From: Myxococcales bacterium
GTDB taxonomy: Bacteria > Desulfobacterota > Binatia > HRBIN30
Direction: 5' to 3'
DNA length: 64,000 bases
NCBI GenBank assembly: GCA_037445065.1
Contig: JBBILD010000007.1
Location: 32,001 to 96,000, forward strand
Position numbers and translations under genes: made by a program. Numbering within the stretch: the first letter of the stretch is position 1; each line of letters begins with the position of its first letter. The notes under the pieces were generated by a model, which worked only from the letters and a program-made list of their open reading frames with translations, was not told where the DNA came from and did no database searches. Shown here in pieces: positions 5,079 to 64,000 of this stretch.

Positions 5079-5741
5079 ATGAACCTCGTGCACGCGGCTT
5101 ACGAACCAGAGGGCTCGGGTCCTCATCCCACCATCCTCGCCTTGCACGGTTGGGGTGCGAATGCGCTCGACTTGCTCGGCCTCGCACCCCACTTGTGCAA
5201 CGGGCGCTGGCTCGTGCTCTGCCCACAGGGGCCGATCGCGGTTCCGCTCGGGGCGATGGGAACCGGCTGGGGCTGGTTTCCGCTCACCCTCGGCCAGCCG
5301 CCGGATCCGGCTGCCTTTCGTGCCGCAGTCGCTGCGGTGCAAGCCTTCCTCGATGCAGCCGAGGAGCGCTACCCGATCCAGAAAAACAAAGTCGTGTTGC
5401 TCGGCTTCAGCCAAGGAGGAGTGGTCGCGTACGCGCTCGCATTGTCCGAGCCAGAGCGCTTCGCCGGACTTGCTGCCCTCAGCTCCTGGCTCCCGGCGGC
5501 GGTGGTTGAGGCGCTTCCCGCGCGCGATCGCTCCCAACTCACCACGTTGGTGCAGCACGGCACCGGCGACGATTTGATCTCGGTGTCGCGGGCCCGCGAG
5601 TCGCTCGAGCGGCTGCGTTCCCTGCGCGTGCCGGTCACCTACCGCGAATACGACATGGGCCACGAAATTACGGGAGAGAGCGTGCGCGACCTCTCGACGT
5701 GGCTCGAACGCAGTGTGCTGTCCCCCATCATCACCTTGTAG
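5079..5741 (+). CDS. Phospholipase/carboxylesterase (alpha/beta hydrolase)
   Basis: LHGWG, GFSQGG nucleophile elbow, HGTGDD and MGHEI catalytic residues. Confidence 0.9.
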   Translation: MNLVHAAYEPEGSGPHPTILALHGWGANALDLLGLAPHLCNGRWLVLCPQGPIAVPLGAMGTGWGWFPLTLGQPPDPAAFRAAVAAVQAFLDAAEERYPIQKNKVVLLGFSQGGVVAYALALSEPERFAGLAALSSWLPAAVVEALPARDRSQLTTLVQHGTGDDLISVSRARESLERLRSLRVPVTYREYDMGHEITGESVRDLSTWLERSVLSPIITL

Positions 5742-5812
5742 GGGACGCGATTGCAGCTCGGGGCTGCTCGGCTGCGCCTGCCGCAGCCCCGCGGGGCTGG
5801 TGCGGTGAGGTC

Positions 5813-5854
5813 CAAAACGAGCGGGGCCTTCCTGCGCTCCAGGAAGGCCCCGCT
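5813..5854 (-). terminator. Intrinsic terminator hairpin between convergent genes
   Basis: Perfect 15-bp stem AGCGGGGCCTTCCTG (5820-5834) / CAGGAAGGCCCCGCT (5840-5854), followed by CGTTTT on the minus strand. Confidence 0.75.
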
Positions 5855-5927
5855 GTGAGCCGAAGCTCGGGTCTGAGTCGAGGAAAAACCGGAAAACGTA
5901 CCTACGAAAACGACCTCTACGTCGCGG

Positions 5928-6005
5928 TTACTTCTTCTTCTTCGGTGCCGCTTTCTTCTTCGCTGGGGCTTTCTTCTTTGCCTTGCTGCTCTTGGTTGTT
6001 GCCAT
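5928..6005 (-). CDS. 25-aa Lys/Ala/Pro-rich basic micro-protein (histone H1 tail-like): MATTKSSKAKKKAPAKKKAAPKKKK
   Basis: Below the ORF-track length cut-off. SD AAGGAGGT lies 4 nt before the ATG, the stop is TAA, and there is an upstream promoter and a downstream terminator. Confidence 0.75.
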   Translation of the reverse strand: MATTKSSKAKKKAPAKKKAAPKKKK

Positions 6006-6108
6006 AGCGACCTCCTTGTCACTCTTGGGAGTGTTGTGGTTGTCCCTCACTCCCTCGACTCAGACCCGTACCGCGACCTCCTCCTCACCTCCACCACTCA
6101 CGCCCGCG

Positions 6109-6172
6109 CTTATATTCAGGTCCTTTGTCAAAAGTCAAGAGGAGAATACCATTTTAGAAAAATTTTTTTAAA
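6109..6172 (-). promoter_or_regulatory. Sigma70 promoter with AT-rich UP-like element for the micro-ORF transcript
   Basis: TTGACT (6138-6133)-N18-TATAAG (6114-6109), preceded by A/T tracts at about 6150-6172 in otherwise GC-rich DNA. Confidence 0.6.
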
Positions 6173-6486
6173 CCGTTCCGTATCGGAATTTCGATGGGTT
6201 ACGCCGGCATAAAATCGCGTTCCCCGATCTTGAGGCCGATTCTTAGGCGATTGTTTTAGAGGGTTGTCCACAGCCGCGGGGAGGACTACGGACAGGGCTC
6301 GAGGGAGACTGTTGCGGGCGAGCTGTTAAAGTTGCGGATGCATCTGCAACGCTCCGCGTCCGTGGCCTACAGGCGCTTATCTACCCTCGCCGCACAGCCG
6401 TTTGGATCCACCTACACGCAGCGCCCGTACAGTCGGGAAAGACGCTGCTATGCAGGCCGTTTCTTTGCGGGCGGGGGCTCCACCCT

Positions 6487-58859: not shown

Positions 58860-59399
58860 AACCGCTCCTTACTACCAGAACCGCGTCGCACCAAGAGACT
58901 GCCACGCACCGGCCTTTCGGCGGCCACCCCGGCGCCGGCTTTCCGCTCTCATTTTTGGGGCGGGGCTGTGTTGGGATGCCCTTGCCGTGGGAATGCTGAC
59001 CCGAGTCTGCCCATTTTCAACGGCAGGTACGCACCGGAACGATCCCTCCCGTCGCCCAAACCAAAGCTGTAGGCTCGCAGCGTTCCTCCGCCTCAGAAGC
59101 CACACCCGCAGCGTGCACCTGTGTCGCAACGGTCACCGGACTCGGCGTCTATGGGAGCTGTGGCGCCACCTTCCGGCCCTGCAGCGTGCGCACATGTCAC
59201 TGAAGTCTCGTCGGGGCGGCTCGACCCGCTTGCCCTGCGGTACTCAGTCCGAACCCCTCCGCCGTCTGCCGCTCGGACCGGGCAGCGGTGATGGGGGCTG
59301 CGAAAAACCGCGGGACCCGCGCTCCGGCTCATGTCGAGGGCGTTCTGTTCCGGTGCAGATCCCGCTCGGAACCCCGGGGCTGGCGGCGAGGTGGCTGTC

Positions 59400-59432
59400 C
59401 ACGGAACCAGTCCACGGAACCACACGGAACCA
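59400..59432 (+). repeat. Three direct copies of CACGGAACCA in an intergenic region
   Basis: Copies at 59400-59409, 59413-59422 and 59423-59432. Confidence 0.7.
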
Positions 59433-59996
59433 CCGCGGCACGCAAGGAAACGGGCCTGCCTGCGCAGTGCAGCATTGCCGCAGAGACGCCGTGCTCGCTC
59501 CTCTCTGAACGGACCGCTGGCCCTTCGCCACCCGCCGCTCACGGCTCGCAGCCACGAGGGGCACCGTCACCCATCTCGGAGGCGCGCCGCCGTACCGGTC
59601 GTGGTCGGTCATCTCGGAACGGCCCGTTCCCCATGCGCAATTCACCGTTTCTTGCTCATCGCTGGTTGCGGCATCCGCATGAGCCTGCGGAACGACCGTT
59701 CACCCTCACTAGTGGCCGTTCGCTTAGGGCTGCATTGACTCGATATGTGCGCTTGCGGTACGCGCTGCCAGCGGTGAGACGAGCATCACGGCAGCCGACG
59801 CTCCGCGCACGCAGCCGCGTGCCGCGTTTCGCTCGACGCCGACACAGCGGTGACCGTAGCCCGTCGGACAATGACCTCGACCCGACAAGGAGCCGTTTCC
59901 GGCGCATGCCGCGCCGCCCGCATGGCTGCGTTCTCTCGCGAACGCGCGGCCGCTAAGTACACGCACCATCAAGAAGATTCCTAGGAGGTTTTCACC

Positions 59997-60638
59997 GTGG
60001 AAGGGTTGAGCGTACTCGACTTGATCCAGCAGGGCTGGATCGCAACATACCCGTTGCTGCTTTTCTCCGTGGCAACCGTGACCATTATCCTCGAGCGCGC
60101 CTGGTCGTTGCGCGGGCTGATCCCCAGCACGTTGAGCTTGGCGGAACAAGTGCGGGCACCGCTCGAACAAGGCAACTTCCGGGCTGCCCTAGAAGCCGCG
60201 CAAGCTGCCAATGGAACCCCGGCCGGCCGTATCTTCACCGACGTCATTACCCGGCATCAGTCCGACTCTCTGGAGTATCTTTCCGATTTGACGGAGGACA
60301 AGCGCTTCGAAGAAATCGAGGCGCTCAAGGGTCCGCTGTGGGTACTGGGGACGGTCAGCAGCTCCGCGCCGTTCATCGGCCTGTTCGGCACCGTGATCGG
60401 CATCATCAAAGCGTTTCACAACATGGCGGTGATGGGAAGCGGTGGCTTTTCTGTGGTGGCTGCGGGCATTTCCGAAGCTCTGGTGGCCACGGCTCTCGGG
60501 CTCGGCGTCGCCATCCTGGCGCTGATTTTCTACAACTATTTTCAGACCCAAATCGAGCGCATCGAGGCGGCGCTCACCATCGCCTGCAACCGGGTGCTCG
60601 ATGCCATCCATCTGGGGAGGCAGAACCATGGCGTTTAA
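59997..60638 (+). CDS. MotA/TolQ/ExbB proton channel protein
   Basis: SSAPFIGLFGTVIGII and GISEALVATALGL; AGGAGG SD before the GTG. Confidence 0.95.
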   Translation: MEGLSVLDLIQQGWIATYPLLLFSVATVTIILERAWSLRGLIPSTLSLAEQVRAPLEQGNFRAALEAAQAANGTPAGRIFTDVITRHQSDSLEYLSDLTEDKRFEEIEALKGPLWVLGTVSSSAPFIGLFGTVIGIIKAFHNMAVMGSGGFSVVAAGISEALVATALGLGVAILALIFYNYFQTQIERIEAALTIACNRVLDAIHLGRQNHGV

Positions 60639-61047
60639 TGCCCGTCACCGGGGCCATAAAGGCATCGTCTCGGAAATCAACATCACACCCCTGACCGACA
60701 TCTTCCTCGTGCTGCTGATCATCTTCATGGTAACCAGCGCCGCGATGGTGGAGTCCGGCGCGAAAATCAGTCTCCCTGAGGTGGATTCCACGGCCGCGCA
60801 ACCGCGCGAAATCACCATCACGGTGACCCCGCAAAACGACGTGTACGTCAACGCCCAACTCACCCCCTATGAACAGTTGGAAGACACCTTGCGGCAACTC
60901 ATTCAGAATCGCCCGGACGTACCGGTGGTGCTGGAGGGGGACCGCGAGGTTTTGTTCGGACAGGCGGTAAAAATCCTCGCACTGGCGCAAAAGGCGGGCG
61001 CCTCGCAAATCGCGATTGCCGCTCAGCCGCGGCGCGCAGCTCCCTGA
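60628..61047 (+). CDS. ExbD/TolR family protein
   Basis: EINITPLTDIFLVLLIIFMV with the essential Asp; LEGDREV. Confidence 0.95.
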   Translation: MAFNARHRGHKGIVSEINITPLTDIFLVLLIIFMVTSAAMVESGAKISLPEVDSTAAQPREITITVTPQNDVYVNAQLTPYEQLEDTLRQLIQNRPDVPVVLEGDREVLFGQAVKILALAQKAGASQIAIAAQPRRAAP

Positions 61048-61049
61048 GT

Positions 61050-62192
61050 ATGAGCGCAGCTCCGCCTCCGACGTCTCGCTCCAACTTCGATCCTTGGGCG
61101 CCGCGCCCCCGCGCTACGGCACGCTGGGTGGTGGTCTCGGGGCTGGTGCACGCCGCACTACTGCTGCTGTTCGCAACCGTGACCCTGACCGTGATCCAGA
61201 AAATCGAGGAGATTCGGGTCAAGGTGCAGGAAGAGGCGATCCCAGGCCCGGAAAATTTGGAGGGGGCAGATTCCCTGCGCGACGTGGCCGGCGCCCTGCG
61301 GCCGGAACAAGCCTTGCCCAAACGAGCCCAAGCGAGCGGGCCCGCGCCGCAAGGCATCCGCGCCCCCGAGCTTCCCGCCATCGGTGGTTTCGGACCGAAG
61401 CTCGGCGGGCCGGTCCTCGATATTCACACTCCAATTTCCTTTGGCGCGGGCGGCGCTGGGGTCGGCGGACTGGGCGGTTCATTCGGTGAATACGTGGGCG
61501 GGCTGCGGCGCGTCGGCCTCGACGTGGCCTTGGTGATCGATACCACCGACAGCATGCAGTTCGTCATTGACGAAGTGCGCTCGCGCCTCAAAGCGTTCGT
61601 CGCCGCGCTGCAACGGATGGTGCCCACTACCCGCGTTGGCATCGTGGTCTATCGGGACAAAGGCGACGACTACGTGGTGAAGTGGACCGACCTCAGCTTC
61701 AACACCCAAAAGCTGCTGGATTTCTTGGCCAACATCCGAGCGGGCGGCGGGGGCGACTGGGAAGAGGCGGTCAAAGACGCACTCGATACAGCAGTGCACG
61801 AACTCAACTGGCGCAAGAAATCTAAAAAGGTCCTGATTATCGTCGGCGATGCACCACCACACCCGTGGGAACTCGACGAGGTCAGGGGAATCGTGCGCGA
61901 GTTTCGCCAGCAAGGCGGCTTCGTGAGTGCGATTGACGTCACCATTCCGGCGCACGAAATCTTCGACCGCCATATGTGGCGCTCTCTCCACGGCAGCAAA
62001 CCGTACCAGCCCTCTCCACTGCCGGACTTCTACCACGAAGTGAGCCGCACTTATGGGGAGATCGCCAAACTAGGCGGTGGCGAACTGGTACAGCTCCGCG
62101 AGAACAAGGCACTCATGCGCAGCATTCTCGAACTGACCTTTGGCAGTCGCTGGAAAACGGAGATGCAAAAGTACCTGAAGGAGTTGACCTAA
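61050..62192 (+). CDS. Membrane-anchored vWA protein with a TonB-like N-terminal helix
   Basis: TM VVVSGLVHAALLLL (SxxxH), Pro/Gly-rich linker, then vWA motifs LVIDTTDSM, GGGDWEE and VGDAPPH. Confidence 0.85.
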   Translation: MSAAPPPTSRSNFDPWAPRPRATARWVVVSGLVHAALLLLFATVTLTVIQKIEEIRVKVQEEAIPGPENLEGADSLRDVAGALRPEQALPKRAQASGPAPQGIRAPELPAIGGFGPKLGGPVLDIHTPISFGAGGAGVGGLGGSFGEYVGGLRRVGLDVALVIDTTDSMQFVIDEVRSRLKAFVAALQRMVPTTRVGIVVYRDKGDDYVVKWTDLSFNTQKLLDFLANIRAGGGGDWEEAVKDALDTAVHELNWRKKSKKVLIIVGDAPPHPWELDEVRGIVREFRQQGGFVSAIDVTIPAHEIFDRHMWRSLHGSKPYQPSPLPDFYHEVSRTYGEIAKLGGGELVQLRENKALMRSILELTFGSRWKTEMQKYLKELT

Positions 62193-62193
62193 C

Positions 62194-64000
62194 GTGGGGC
62201 GAAACGTCTGGCTGCTCGCCCTGCTGGCATTGCTGGCCAGCGCGGTGGCAGGCGCGCAATCCGTGGCCGACATCGTGGCCCGCGCCCGGCAGGTGAAGCA
62301 AAGCTGGTCCGGGGGCCAACCACCGAGCGACGAAGCAGCCCTGCGCCAATCCATCGCCCGGTTAGGAGAGGCGGCCTTGCAGTTCATCGCCCTCAGTGAT
62401 CGCTTCGAGCAGCAAGGGGGAGGGAAGGAAGGGGAAGCTTTGCTGGAAGCATACCGCGCGCTGAGCCAACCGCTCGAAGCCATTTACGAGGCGACAGGCG
62501 GCAAGCTCGAGCGCATGGTGCAAAAGGTCATCGCGGAAGACGGCGACTTGGAAGCTCTCTACGAATCCCCGGAGTACCGCAGAGCCGGCACCCTCGGAGC
62601 GCAAGCACTCTACTATCTGAATTGGGTCCGTTTTTACGGCGCGCGCCGGATGGAAGGCGCCCAACGCAAGATTCTCTTGGAGAAAGCAATGCAGGGTTTC
62701 GGCGAGTTTGCCGGCAGCGACAACGCGGAACTCCGACGCGAGAGCTTGCTCGGCCGCGGCCTCTGCGCCCTCGAACTGGGCGACTTGGACGCCGCCACCC
62801 AGGATCTCCTCGCAGTGGCCGACGACCCGCAAAATCCTGCCGAACGCCGATCCAAGGCGCGCCTGGCCTTGCTCGATGCGTACGTGCGGCATGGTCGGTA
62901 TCGGGAAGCGGTCCAGCTTTCTGCCGCCTTGATGGGTACCGCTGGGGCGGATGCGCGGGTGCGCTTTTTGCACGCCCGCGCCTTGTTGGAACTGGCGCGC
63001 AAAGCCAGCGCCGAAGAAGCAGAACGGTTGCGCAAGGACGCGGTGGCTGCGCTCGAACCGCTGCAGCGTGGCGGCGGGGTGTGGGCCGAACGCGCACAAG
63101 GACTCCTCCTGTCGTTTGCGGACGATCCGGCGCGGCTCGCCAAAATGGTCGAAGGTCCCCGGGCGCGCATCGAGCTGGCCAAAATGCTGCTGCAGAAAAA
63201 GGACTACCGGCAGGCCATCTCCGTGCTCGAAGAGGCGGGGAGGTCCGGGTCTCTTTCCCCCGCACTCGAAGCAGAGCGCCGTTACGTGCTGGGTTTGGCC
63301 CAGTTCCAAAGCGGCCTGTGGCGCGAAGCGGCGGAGAACCTGAGGCTAGCCGCACAGGAGAAGACCGGCGAGGACGCGGCGGAGGCAGCCTACCTCCACT
63401 TCAAGGCTTGGGAGCGGATGGCTGCCGACCAACGGGAACAAGCGGACTTGGCTGCCTACGAGCGAGCCATCCGAGCGTACGTCGAGCGCTTTCCCCAGCA
63501 CCGCTTTGCCTACGAGGGCTTTTTCCGGCTGGGCGAGCTGCTCCAGCAGCGCAAACAGTGCAAGGAGGCGCTGGAAGCATTCGCGCGTGTGAGCGGCGAT
63601 GCGGAGTTTCATGTCCGTGCTCGCTTCGGAGCGCTTCAATGCCGAGTGACCTTGCTCGCCGAGTCGGGTAGCCCCTCTGCACAAACGCTGGCGGAACTCG
63701 GCAGTGAACTTGCGATACTGACCCGGGCCCTCGAAGATCTCAAGCACCGCCAGCGCAACGAGCCCGTGGTGCTGAGCGGTCTCGAAGCGAAACTCACCCT
63801 CCTTCGCGCCGCGTGGCAAAGCTGGCAGGCGGAGCCAGACTGGCAGCAAATCGCCTCCGCGCTCGAAAACTTCGAGCAGCGCTATGCGCAGCAAAGCGAG
63901 CTGTTTGCGGCTGTCAACCGCTTGCGCTTACTCGCCTACTTGCGCCTCGGCCGCTTCCGCGACGCCGAGGCCGTGGCCGAGCGCTGGGCGTCGGAACTGG
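62194..64000 (+). CDS. Large exported TPR protein, 3' end truncated by window edge
   Basis: Not in the ORF track because it is open to the edge. GTG 1 nt after the upstream stop: MGRNVWLLALLALLASAVAGA-QS signal peptide, then TPR-like helices (LLGRGLCALELGD, YVLGLAQFQSG, YVERFPQHRFAYEGFFRLGELL). Confidence 0.85.
   Translation, partial: MGRNVWLLALLALLASAVAGAQSVADIVARARQVKQSWSGGQPPSDEAALRQSIARLGEAALQFIALSDRFEQQGGGKEGEALLEAYRALSQPLEAIYEATGGKLERMVQKVIAEDGDLEALYESPEYRRAGTLGAQALYYLNWVRFYGARRMEGAQRKILLEKAMQGFGEFAGSDNAELRRESLLGRGLCALELGDLDAATQDLLAVADDPQNPAERRSKARLALLDAYVRHGRYREAVQLSAALMGTAGADARVRFLHARALLELARKASAEEAERLRKDAVAALEPLQRGGGVWAERAQGLLLSFADDPARLAKMVEGPRARIELAKMLLQKKDYRQAISVLEEAGRSGSLSPALEAERRYVLGLAQFQSGLWREAAENLRLAAQEKTGEDAAEAAYLHFKAWERMAADQREQADLAAYERAIRAYVERFPQHRFAYEGFFRLGELLQQRKQCKEALEAFARVSGDAEFHVRARFGALQCRVTLLAESGSPSAQTLAELGSELAILTRALEDLKHRQRNEPVVLSGLEAKLTLLRAAWQSWQAEPDWQQIASALENFEQRYAQQSELFAAVNRLRLLAYLRLGRFRDAEAVAERWASEL

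Follow-up and report, generated by a model that had tools for sequence, protein, structure and literature searches.

What does an ExbB-ExbD stator pull on when the gene in the position of tonB or tolA encodes a protein that ends in a vWA domain? The question is raised by four tightly packed genes of an uncultured Binatia bacterium, all on the + strand, at the end of the 64,000-nucleotide stretch of DNA that was analysed (the window). Ton and Tol are the sole well-understood routes by which Gram-negative bacteria send inner-membrane energy across the periplasm. Judging from sequence, we consider it probable that the operon encodes a proton-driven system dedicated to exerting force across the periplasm, the third beside canonical Ton and Tol-Pal. 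Its features are as follows:

59997-60638, + strand: ExbB/TolQ-like stator subunit (213 aa; PF01618, E 1.7e-30)
60628-61047, + strand: ExbD/TolR-like stator subunit (139 aa from the ATG at 60628, in an ORF that opens at 60601; PF02472, E 2.2e-29)
61050-62192, + strand: TonB/TolA-like anchored vWA protein (380 aa; PF00092, E 1.6e-11, residues 158-297)
61125-61196, + strand: TM helix of the vWA protein (residues 26-49; Ser30 at 61137-61139, His34 at 61149-61151)
61236-61505, + strand: Pro/Gly-rich disordered linker of the vWA protein (residues 63-152; from pLDDT and composition)
61518-62189, + strand: vWA head with a MIDAS-like site (residues 157-380; from Foldseek and conservation)
62194-64000 in the window, + strand: exported TPR protein (residues 1-602 in the window, 779 aa in full)

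The four genes form one translationally coupled operon. The ExbB-like and ExbD-like genes overlap by 11 nt, a gap of 2 nt precedes the vWA gene and a gap of 1 nt the TPR gene, as the initial annotation of overlapping or abutting genes had stated. Upstream lie a divergent TetR regulator, a metallo-beta-lactamase-fold protein and PntAB. The TPR gene extends 534 nt beyond the window edge, behind which a canonical tonB or tolA might have followed; among the genes read further along the contig, no tonB, tolA, receptor or outer-membrane barrel follows the operon. Instead, a peroxiredoxin gene starts 27 nt past the TPR gene, followed by a gene for an Fe/Mn superoxide dismutase. These two neighbours are found only at the source locus and its closest relative (L004); the remaining 19 related loci lack them. 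On the opposite strand, about 9 kb downstream, is a gene for a TonB-dependent receptor.

The ExbB-like gene starts with GTG behind an AGGAGG, and its product is presumed to form a pentameric proton channel. It scores 105 bits against the NCBIfam tolQ model and 75 bits against exbB, both under the model cut-offs, and matches solved ExbB (5sv0) and TolQ (8odt) equally (E about 7e-15). The C5 and Ton paralogues of ExbB in the genome share 42% identity with it, whereas the genome's TolQ shares 35%. For the ExbD-like gene a start at ATG 60628 is likely, with a GGGAGG Shine-Dalgarno sequence 8 nt upstream. Its TM helix bears the conserved channel Asp (NITPLTDIFLVLLIIFMV), a motif found by a strict pattern at 17 of the 20 related loci; the protein reaches 88.6 bits against the tolR model (cut-off 127) and matches TolR (9ddm) and ExbD (6tyi) with E about 1e-11.

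The vWA protein has the three-part layout of TonB and TolA: a Ser-x3-His TM helix, a disordered linker of about 90 residues and a globular head. Its N-terminus is cytoplasmic with an RFDPW-type motif, and the TM helix (WVVVSGLVHAALLLLFATVTLTVI) contains no Asp. The SxxxH membrane motif noticed in the initial annotation is present as SGLVH (residues 30-34, 61137-61151). S30, H34, L38 and T43 are invariant across 30 homologues (55-78% identity in the S30/H34 alignment), and F41 and T45 stand seven and eleven residues past His34; their TonB equivalents we take to be Leu and Ser. The concern that the His might not be conserved is unfounded: it is kept in all 30 close homologues, SxxxH is found at 20 of 20 motor-linked loci, and at the aligned positions of a wider family of 121 sequences (the window's vWA protein plus 120 cluster representatives) His is present in 110 and Ser in 101. 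On account of this retention at all three levels, the anatomy of the protein is more than chance. Directly past the helix the segment IEEIRVKV (residues 52-59) is conserved in the 30-homologue alignment; because AlphaFold2 draws it as a helix, we only infer that it is strand-like, a candidate 'motor box'. Ser-x3-His followed by xVxV strands also occurs in TolA (SALLH) and in one TonB protein (SVLTH) of the same genome. The likeness of the anchor to TonB and TolA is at the level of motifs only, since helix profiles give these proteins no significant E-values: a profile of residues 1-62 has no significant match to the TonB/TolA proteins of the genome (best E=27), and a family helix profile, itself built from segments preselected for S...H, places the TonB on C3 (E 0.22) and TolA (E 1.8) at ranks 3 and 5 of 31,921 ORFs. 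The source genome also encodes a further Ser-x3-His anchored protein with a head of unassigned kind.

The AlphaFold2 model comprises a helix (residues 20-62), a segment with pLDDT below 50 (63-152) and a confident vWA fold (157-380). The low-confidence segment is the predicted Pro/Gly linker, which holds up with 11 Pro and 21 Gly in 90 residues (36% Pro+Gly) and includes the conserved motifs GPKLG and FGxYVGGLRK. The head is matched by PF00092, PF13519 and PF25106, and Pfam finds no TonB_C, TonB_2 or TolA domain in the protein (no PF03544, no PF13103). Its best Foldseek matches are BatB (3ibs_A, E 2.2e-10) and 4jdu (E 1.0e-9), followed by anthrax-receptor and integrin I domains. The MIDAS-like site consists of D164-x-T166-x-S168 (DTTDS, 61539-61553), D236 (in GGGD, where a canonical MIDAS has Thr) and D267 (in GDAPPH). 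In the 121 sequences D164 is retained in 119, T166 in 114, S168 in 116, D236 in 102 and D267 in 105; yet all but one of the 20 related motor-linked loci have Gly or Ser at the D267 position. The vWA fold and the DTTDS of the annotated DxTxS...D site are thus borne out and the second Asp is not general among motor-linked members, so that metal-dependent ligand binding is not assured.

Relatives of the vWA protein are widespread: of 8000 scored candidates, 628 are homologues at E<=1e-3, and matching cluster representatives number 7666 at E<=1e-3 and 114 at E<=1e-30. An orthologue (E<=1e-40) is present in 110 of 151 sampled Binatia genomes, a count that takes in one unpublished genome (G282), and in 98 of the 132 high-quality ones. 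Among 49 long relatives that were scanned, 26 carry an N-terminal FHA domain and none a fused TPR domain. In five Planctomycetota genomes with relatives, the gene has no ExbB gene nearby. An Atlas listing shows look-alike clusters in Verrucomicrobiota and Planctomycetota, which are taken as leads only.

The fourth gene encodes, as annotated, an exported TPR scaffold of more than 600 residues: the full product has 779 aa (L003, 2695-5034) and a signal-peptide-like N-terminus (about residues 1-21) with no lipobox, and C748 near its C-terminus is invariant. A PDB search returns generic TPR matches only, including CpoB (E 2.5e-4). Against the tol_pal_ybgF model the protein has a weak match (residues 410-468, E 6.2e-9, 36.5 bits with a cut-off of 90), and a BatC-type TPR match is weak as well (E 0.0038).

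A survey of co-occurrence finds the complete set of ExbB, ExbD, SxxxH-TM-vWA and TPR genes at all 20 motor-linked loci, which belong to several lineages and show two gene orders: ExbB-ExbD-vWA-TPR (12 loci) and vWA-ExbB-ExbD(-ExbD2)-TPR (8 loci). Clustering of neighbouring genes yields only these four conserved families, plus a second ExbD at 5 loci, all of the vWA-first order (two confirmed by Pfam); loci of the source-type order have a single ExbD.

The Ton and Tol components of the genome are encoded elsewhere. Contig C4 harbors a Tol-Pal cluster with TolR, TolA and TolB by Pfam, where the adjoining MotA_ExbB gene is taken as TolQ, and there is a separate TonB-ExbB-ExbD cluster. All four TonB_C-type genes are located away from the operon. 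Two of them have no adjacent stator: the TonB gene on C3, which carries SVLTH and lies in a receptor/binding-protein/FecCD/ABC cluster, and the one on C6, which adjoins BamA. A fourth stator has no obvious partner. Given these stator-less TonB genes and the partnerless stator, the operon's stator could serve another protein; that is, ExbB-ExbD might be a spare Ton stator for a motor-less TonB of the genome, with the vWA and TPR proteins as periplasmic accessory or regulatory proteins that share the operon. The receptor gene 9 kb downstream is consistent with this, but the vWA and TPR genes, and no TonB, accompany the stator at every related locus in several lineages and both gene orders, and the vWA protein itself retains the Ser/His helix, which makes the explanation quite unlikely. 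An actual Ton system is ruled out by the missing TonB C-terminal domain and the absence of a receptor in the operon. As for Tol, the stator scores higher with the tolQ/tolR than with the exbB/exbD models, and the TPR matches to tol_pal_ybgF and CpoB suggest an envelope-integrity system in which a CpoB/YbgF-like coordinator is combined with a vWA head that stands in for TolA domain III and, in growth or division, tethers an outer-membrane partner or mobilises it. We regard this as unlikely: the tolQ, tolR and tol_pal_ybgF scores are all under the curated cut-offs, the stator is closer in identity to the C5 and Ton paralogues than to TolQ, and the operon contains no TolB or Pal gene, a complete Tol-Pal cluster being present elsewhere. 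The low tolQ/tolR scores and the genes on C4 also rule out that the operon is itself the Tol-Pal cluster.

The structural matches of the head to BatB and to the B. fragilis aerotolerance membrane protein (4jdu), the BatC-type TPR match and the adjacent peroxiredoxin and dismutase genes would fit a Bat-like vWA and TPR envelope complex for oxidative-stress tolerance, in which a proton motor replaces the MoxR ATPase. It is highly improbable, as the two oxidative-stress genes are not shared by the 19 further loci, no MoxR or DUF58 gene is found, the NCBIfam Bat models are not reached, and the fold matches are those of a generic vWA domain (12-19% identity). A literature search combining Bat terms with ExbB found no paper that joins both. 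We give still less credence to a pared-down Agl-Glt-type motor for surface motility or adhesion, which would move an adhesin-like vWA head along or through the envelope, assisted by the TPR scaffold. Gliding is raised as a possibility in PMC12204202, PMC11761067 describes a similar combination of parts in Agl-Glt, and an N-terminal FHA domain, as in GltG, occurs in about half of the long relatives. The source vWA protein, however, has no FHA domain, its head is tethered to the inner membrane by about 90 residues and not surface exposed, and neighbour clustering reveals no conserved gene beside the operon for an adhesin, an outer-membrane barrel or any other Glt-like component.

We therefore return to the dedicated third force system. 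Here the Ser/His face of the helix would dock on the rim of an ExbB5-ExbD2 stator in the manner of TonB and TolA, and the short conserved segment IRVKV behind the helix, a putative strand, may engage the periplasmic domain of ExbD. Proton flow would then pull the linker, and the vWA head would put force on whatever its metal site holds; our committed guess is that this site holds the co-conserved TPR protein of the periplasm, or else a client bound to that protein. If so, a complex in the periplasm or outer membrane would be loaded, moved or released by the motor. The initial annotation of a PMF-driven puller distinct from Ton and Tol fits the anatomy, the co-conserved genes, the Ser/His motif, the absence of a TonB_C or TolA domain and the separate Ton and Tol-Pal clusters, but the functions it named (remodelling, export, envelope biogenesis, motility) are guesses, as are our own candidates of envelope maintenance, surface or adhesin handling and protein remodelling. 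A bolder version, unlikely in our estimate, holds that in Binatia and scattered deltaproteobacteria-type lineages a metal-site vWA 'hand' is drawn against a giant periplasmic TPR scaffold by proton flow through this third, widely conserved motor and so acts as a force-gated clamp for loading, unfolding or releasing envelope proteins; the system would be the proton-driven counterpart of ATP-driven MoxR-vWA (Bat-type) remodelling systems, with the FHA domains of distant relatives providing phospho-signal control. The TonB/TolA helix would then serve as a general plug by which 5:2 motors are joined to many different heads in the periplasm. If Ton and Tol have a third counterpart with a head of another kind, conserved in roughly three of every four sampled Binatia genomes, the picture drawn from them would widen, and the four genes would offer a compact system for asking what a proton-driven vWA head pulls on.

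The closest known counterpart is the class of 'vWA force transducers' encoded beside tolQ, tolR and TPR genes (Williams-Jones et al., Mol Biol Evol 2025, PMC12204202, section 8), for which a prototype from Tichowtungia aerotolerans was presented and AF3 docking through the His proposed. Common to both are a TM helix that bears the Ser/His (SHLS) motif of TonB and TolA, a strand next to it (putative here), a disordered linker (about 100 residues there), a vWA head that replaces the TonB/TolA C-terminal domain, and an operon with tolQ-like, tolR-like and co-occurring TPR genes. On architecture and synteny, matched to the published description, the locus appears to join this class. The architecture is hence not new, as the initial annotation had supposed, but because the published work is computational only, the system is described and not characterised. 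The gene order differs: TPR, tolQ, two different tolR and vWA in the published PVC loci, compared with ExbB, one ExbD, vWA and TPR here. A search of that text for lineage terms finds neither Binatia nor deltaproteobacteria-type lineages named. The locus thus extends the class to a new lineage and adds a simpler form with a single ExbD and the TPR gene downstream; it also shows that the Ser, the His and most metal-site residues are conserved far beyond motor-linked members, and points to FHA-bearing relatives. A second family in PMC12204202 lacks TolR, and its TolQ-like channel goes with a pair of 'trans-pore helix' vWA proteins. It likewise ties a vWA protein genetically to a TolQ/ExbB-like channel, but has a proton-binding Asp in the vWA helix and no ExbD, and is ruled out here by the ExbD gene and the Asp-free Ser/His helix. 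MotAB-type anti-phage systems were also rejected: PADLOC defence-system models (Zorya-like) match none of ExbB, ExbD and vWA, and the one match of the TPR protein is at chance level.

With TonB-ExbB-ExbD and TolA-TolQ-TolR the operon shares 5:2-type stator genes with the channel Asp and a partner with an N-terminal Ser-x3-His helix, a post-helix strand and a long flexible periplasmic spacer; unlike there, the head is a vWA domain and receptor, TolB and Pal are missing from the operon. Bat operons (BatA/BatB/BatC) similarly encode membrane-anchored vWA proteins together with TPR proteins, but open with MoxR and DUF58 and contain no ExbB/ExbD. The operon is ruled out as a Bat aerotolerance operon by its upstream genes and the unreached Bat models. 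To our knowledge, the Ser/His helix is not a described feature of Bat proteins. The Agl-Glt machinery of Myxococcus (PMC11761067) shares a TolQR-like motor (AglRQS), TonB-like arms with a long disordered linker (GltG/GltJ; GltG is built from an FHA domain, a helix, a linker and a head), large TPR proteins of the periplasm (GltD/GltE) and the involvement of a vWA domain (CglB), and GltG is predicted there to grip the TPR protein GltD; the FHA-helix layout of GltG is also that of many distant relatives of the vWA protein. Agl-Glt comprises at least 17 proteins including outer-membrane barrels, and its arms end TonB-like with the vWA domain in a separate surface adhesin, whereas in the four-gene operon described here the vWA domain is itself the head of the arm.

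The operon at 59997-64000 of the window is predicted from its sequence to be a further member of the vWA force transducers, a class proposed computationally by Williams-Jones et al. (Mol Biol Evol 2025, PMC12204202). It consists of four + strand genes arranged head to tail, and the overlapping or abutting layout described in the initial annotation is borne out by the gene calls. The source genome (3.79 Mb, 97.7% complete) contains the window as part of its contig C7, and the records that come closest bear the label Candidatus Binatia. The features of the locus and its flanks are:

58860-59996: intergenic gap of 1.1 kb between a divergent TetR gene and ExbB
59997-60638, + strand: ExbB/TolQ-like gene, 213 aa (PF01618, E = 1.7e-30)
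60601 (opening of the ORF), + strand: ExbD/TolR-like gene (PF02472, E = 2.2e-29), likelier start ATG 60628
61050-62192, + strand: vWA gene, 380 aa (PF00092, E = 1.6e-11; also VWA_2 and VWA_4)
62194 (start), + strand: TPR gene (Pfam)
5062-6537 of L003 (the same contig read past the window edge), strand of the operon: peroxiredoxin (AhpC/TSA), then Fe/Mn superoxide dismutase

GGGAGG lies 8 nt upstream of ATG 60628, which is probably the start of the ExbD gene, instead of 60601; with this start, ExbB and ExbD overlap by 11 nt, and the next two junctions have gaps of 2 nt and 1 nt. Upstream of the operon lie unrelated genes, namely those for the divergent TetR regulator, a metallo-beta-lactamase-fold protein and PntAB. 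The 1.1-kb gap before ExbB contains no Pfam-bearing ORF, gives no match in an Rfam search, and shares no conserved block in an alignment with the same gap of the closest relative. A promoter and terminator scan returned no promoter-like sites, and terminator-like sites were no commoner than in shuffled sequences. Downstream, the peroxiredoxin gene begins 27 nt after the TPR gene. Peroxiredoxin and dismutase were considered as operon members but are not counted as parts: of the 20 related motor-linked loci (L004-L023), only the nearest relative (L004) has them beside the operon as here, and the other 19 lack them. Past these two genes, on the opposite strand, come genes for a PD40 protein, ABC/FecCD transport and a TonB-dependent receptor, and the contig beyond the window edge has no tonB, tolA, additional motor gene or barrel continuing the operon.

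The vWA protein combines an SxxxH membrane motif, a Pro/Gly linker and a terminal vWA domain, as first annotated. In its AlphaFold2 model (30-sequence alignment), residues 20-62 form one helix, residues 63-152 have pLDDT below 50, and residues 157-380 adopt a confidently predicted vWA fold. The helix (WVVVSGLVHAALLLLFATVTLTVI) carries SGLVH at 61137-61151, the linker contains 11 Pro and 21 Gly per 90 residues, and DTTDS opens the vWA head. S30, H34, L38 and T43 are invariant in 30 homologues (55-78% identity), and so are D164, T165, S168 and D236. Of 8000 scored candidates, 628 are homologues of the vWA gene at E<=1e-3, with lengths of 349-420 aa among the 120 listed; an exhaustive search with the vWA protein yields 7666 cluster representatives at E<=1e-3, of which 114 reach E<=1e-30. 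In a wide-family alignment of 121 sequences, comprising the vWA protein and 120 representatives sized 300-800 aa, the motor-coupling His proposed in the initial annotation is widely kept (H in 110 of 121, 9 gaps, one Q, one N), and at the Ser position 101 of 121 have S (8 others have A and 2 have T). All 20 motor-linked loci retain SxxxH in the helix of their vWA proteins.

The metal-site positions are kept as D164 in 119, T166 in 114, S168 in 116, D236 in 102 (plus 8 E) and D267 in 105 of the 121 sequences, and the site is therefore described as DxTxS...D...D, with Asp replacing the canonical Thr. Of the MIDAS-like pattern noted initially, DxTxS stands, whereas the last Asp, though present in most of the wider family, is replaced by Gly or Ser in 19 of the 20 related motor-linked loci, which read GGSPPH or GSSPPH; GDAPPH is retained only by the window and its closest relative.

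In sequence, the likeness of the vWA anchor to TonB lies in the motif alone. When a profile of residues 1-62 was run over the genome's 31,921 ORFs, no TonB or TolA matched significantly (best E = 27). With a helix profile built from 80 distant representatives, the vWA protein comes top among the same ORFs, followed by an unannotated SxxxH protein; the TonB of contig C3 is third (E = 0.22) and TolA is fifth (E = 1.8), a ranking that leans on the motif since the 80 input segments were preselected for S...H. Following the helix, a strand-like IRVKV is conserved in the vWA family, and the TonB/TolA proteins of the genome have IRVIIV, IEVTF, RVQVVF and YTVELV at a comparable place; IRVKV would fit the 'motor box' of PMC12204202.

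We note that contig C5 encodes a 373-aa protein (219103-220233, - strand; 5104-6222 of stretch L095) with an N-terminal Ser-x3-His helix (FGWLFASLLLHLLLLAF), an EPIEVDL strand and a Pro-rich linker. Its C-terminal ~150 aa match no Pfam family at E<=0.1, and the gene immediately upstream is for a zinc-ribbon plus DUF3426 protein. The protein looks like another TonB/TolA-style arm, with a head outside the Pfam families.

Co-occurrence was surveyed in a scan of one genome per species, in which 538 of 600 matched stretches were confirmed as relatives. The best 80 loci were compared by tblastn and with profiles made from the operon's own proteins, resulting in three groups. The order of the window, ExbB-ExbD-vWA-TPR, is found in 12 of the best 80 loci (L004-L014 and L023; labelled Binatia, Desulfurellales, Thermodesulfobacteriota, Deltaproteobacteria and Polyangiaceae), and the order vWA-ExbB-ExbD(-ExbD2)-TPR in 8 (L015-L022), five of which have a second ExbD (two confirmed by Pfam). 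Genes for ExbB, ExbD, an SxxxH-helix vWA protein and a TPR protein hence occur together in 20 loci. The other 60 of the best 80, among them 15 from Planctomycetota, have no ExbB/ExbD within 7 kb. Clustering of all ORFs in the 20 motor-linked loci revealed no other conserved neighbour; additional ORFs upstream of ExbB (four loci) and a shared downstream ORF (four loci) match no Pfam family. Within the class of the source genome, an orthologue at E<=1e-40 is present in 110 of 151 sampled genomes, a count that takes in one unpublished genome (G282); among high-quality genomes it is 98 of 132, and by genera 57 of 74. A phylum-wide sample gave an orthologue in 10 of 201.

Two of the loci with the full gene set, L018 and L020, belong to MAGs that bear the labels Limnocylindria (Chloroflexota) and Acidimicrobiia (Actinomycetota); these groups are usually regarded as single-membraned. 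The two loci could reflect mis-binned contigs or a real oddity.

Of 49 distant relatives that represent the vWA family at lengths of at least 440 aa, 26 have the Ser-x3-His helix preceded by a cytoplasmic FHA domain, and some others have a zinc ribbon; FHA-type relatives include the Planctomycetota loci L025, L029 and L036. The Planctomycetota relatives were rejected as motor-linked given the 15 loci lacking nearby stator genes and five genomes with FHA-type relatives, which carry 2-9 ExbB genes each, none of them adjoining the vWA-family gene.

The genome holds four MotA_ExbB genes and four TonB_C-type genes. On contig C4, TolR, TolA (TonB_2 domain, SALLH helix) and TolB (TolB_N plus PD40), all Pfam-confirmed, adjoin a MotA_ExbB gene, a set read as Tol-Pal; C4 also carries a TonB-ExbB-ExbD set. 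The fourth stator cluster, on C5 (4994-7605 of stretch L092, + strand), has ExbB and ExbD followed by a 511-aa AAA ATPase and lacks a neighbouring TonB-like gene. Two TonB genes lack a stator, one within a receptor/binding-protein/FecCD/ABC cluster and one beside BamA. Against this background, the rival reading of the vWA-linked ExbB-ExbD pair as a spare Ton stator has some support. The ExbB of the pair is 42% identical to both the C5 and the Ton paralogues and 35% to TolQ, and its ExbD is 42% identical to C5, 36% to Tol and 33% to Ton, which makes the C5 pair the closest paralogues. Some support likewise exists for a Tol-like envelope system, as tolQ and tolR are the top-scoring NCBIfam models, yet below their cut-offs. 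Solved ExbB and TolQ match about equally well, as do solved ExbD and TolR. In a small midpoint-rooted tree, window-type stators join the C5 paralogue and those loci of the other order that have a single ExbD; a very long branch, where a joining artefact is possible, leads to the two-ExbD stators. In the two-ExbD loci (L015, L017, L019, L021 and L022) ExbB is very divergent, branching outside the genome's own TolQ and ExbB, so that vWA arms may pair with at least two stator lineages.

A Bat-like stress complex also has some support. The top structural match of the vWA head is BatB of Bacteroides thetaiotaomicron (3ibs, E = 2.2e-10), another of the best is a B. fragilis aerotolerance membrane protein (4jdu), and anthrax-toxin-receptor and integrin I domains come next; as all matches are only 12-19% identical, the head is taken as a generic vWA fold. 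The family profile finds a single, weak match among PDB sequences. For a motility motor, which has some support as well, the relevant likeness is that the FHA-helix layout of the distant vWA relatives mirrors GltG of Myxococcus. A defence-system reading had no PADLOC support and was rejected.

The TPR protein, annotated from the window as an exported scaffold of over 600 aa, indeed proves to be 779 aa long when the contig is read beyond the window edge, with a signal-peptide-like N-terminus without a lipobox, an invariant D116-G-D118 loop and an invariant Cys close to the C-terminus. It matches generic TPR only, and none of the 49 long relatives scanned is a fused vWA-TPR form.

The published vWA force-transducer model is taken as the best model for the operon. 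In PMC12204202, inner-membrane proteins combine a vWA head with an SHLS helix and with a disordered linker that includes a motor box; AF3 docks the helix via a conserved His, and a deletion phenotype is stated as never reported. Its main text contains no Binat-, Deltaproteobacteria or Desulfobacter-, and the supplements, outside this search, may list more taxa; a literature search found neither a second paper on vWA force transducers nor an experiment. The initial annotation had proposed a candidate new proton-motor system: the motor-arm reading is sound, but the claim of novelty does not hold, the class having been published. By analogy, the stator would be ExbB5-ExbD2, onto whose rim the Ser/His helix would dock, with a flexible spacer between helix and head. 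Our own committed guess is that the head would act on the exported TPR protein, which is co-conserved. The GltG-GltD complex predicted for Myxococcus, in which an arm grips a large periplasmic TPR protein, offers a precedent (PMC11761067). Relative to the published class, the operon described here differs in its single ExbD, the TPR gene downstream and its broad conservation in Binatia.
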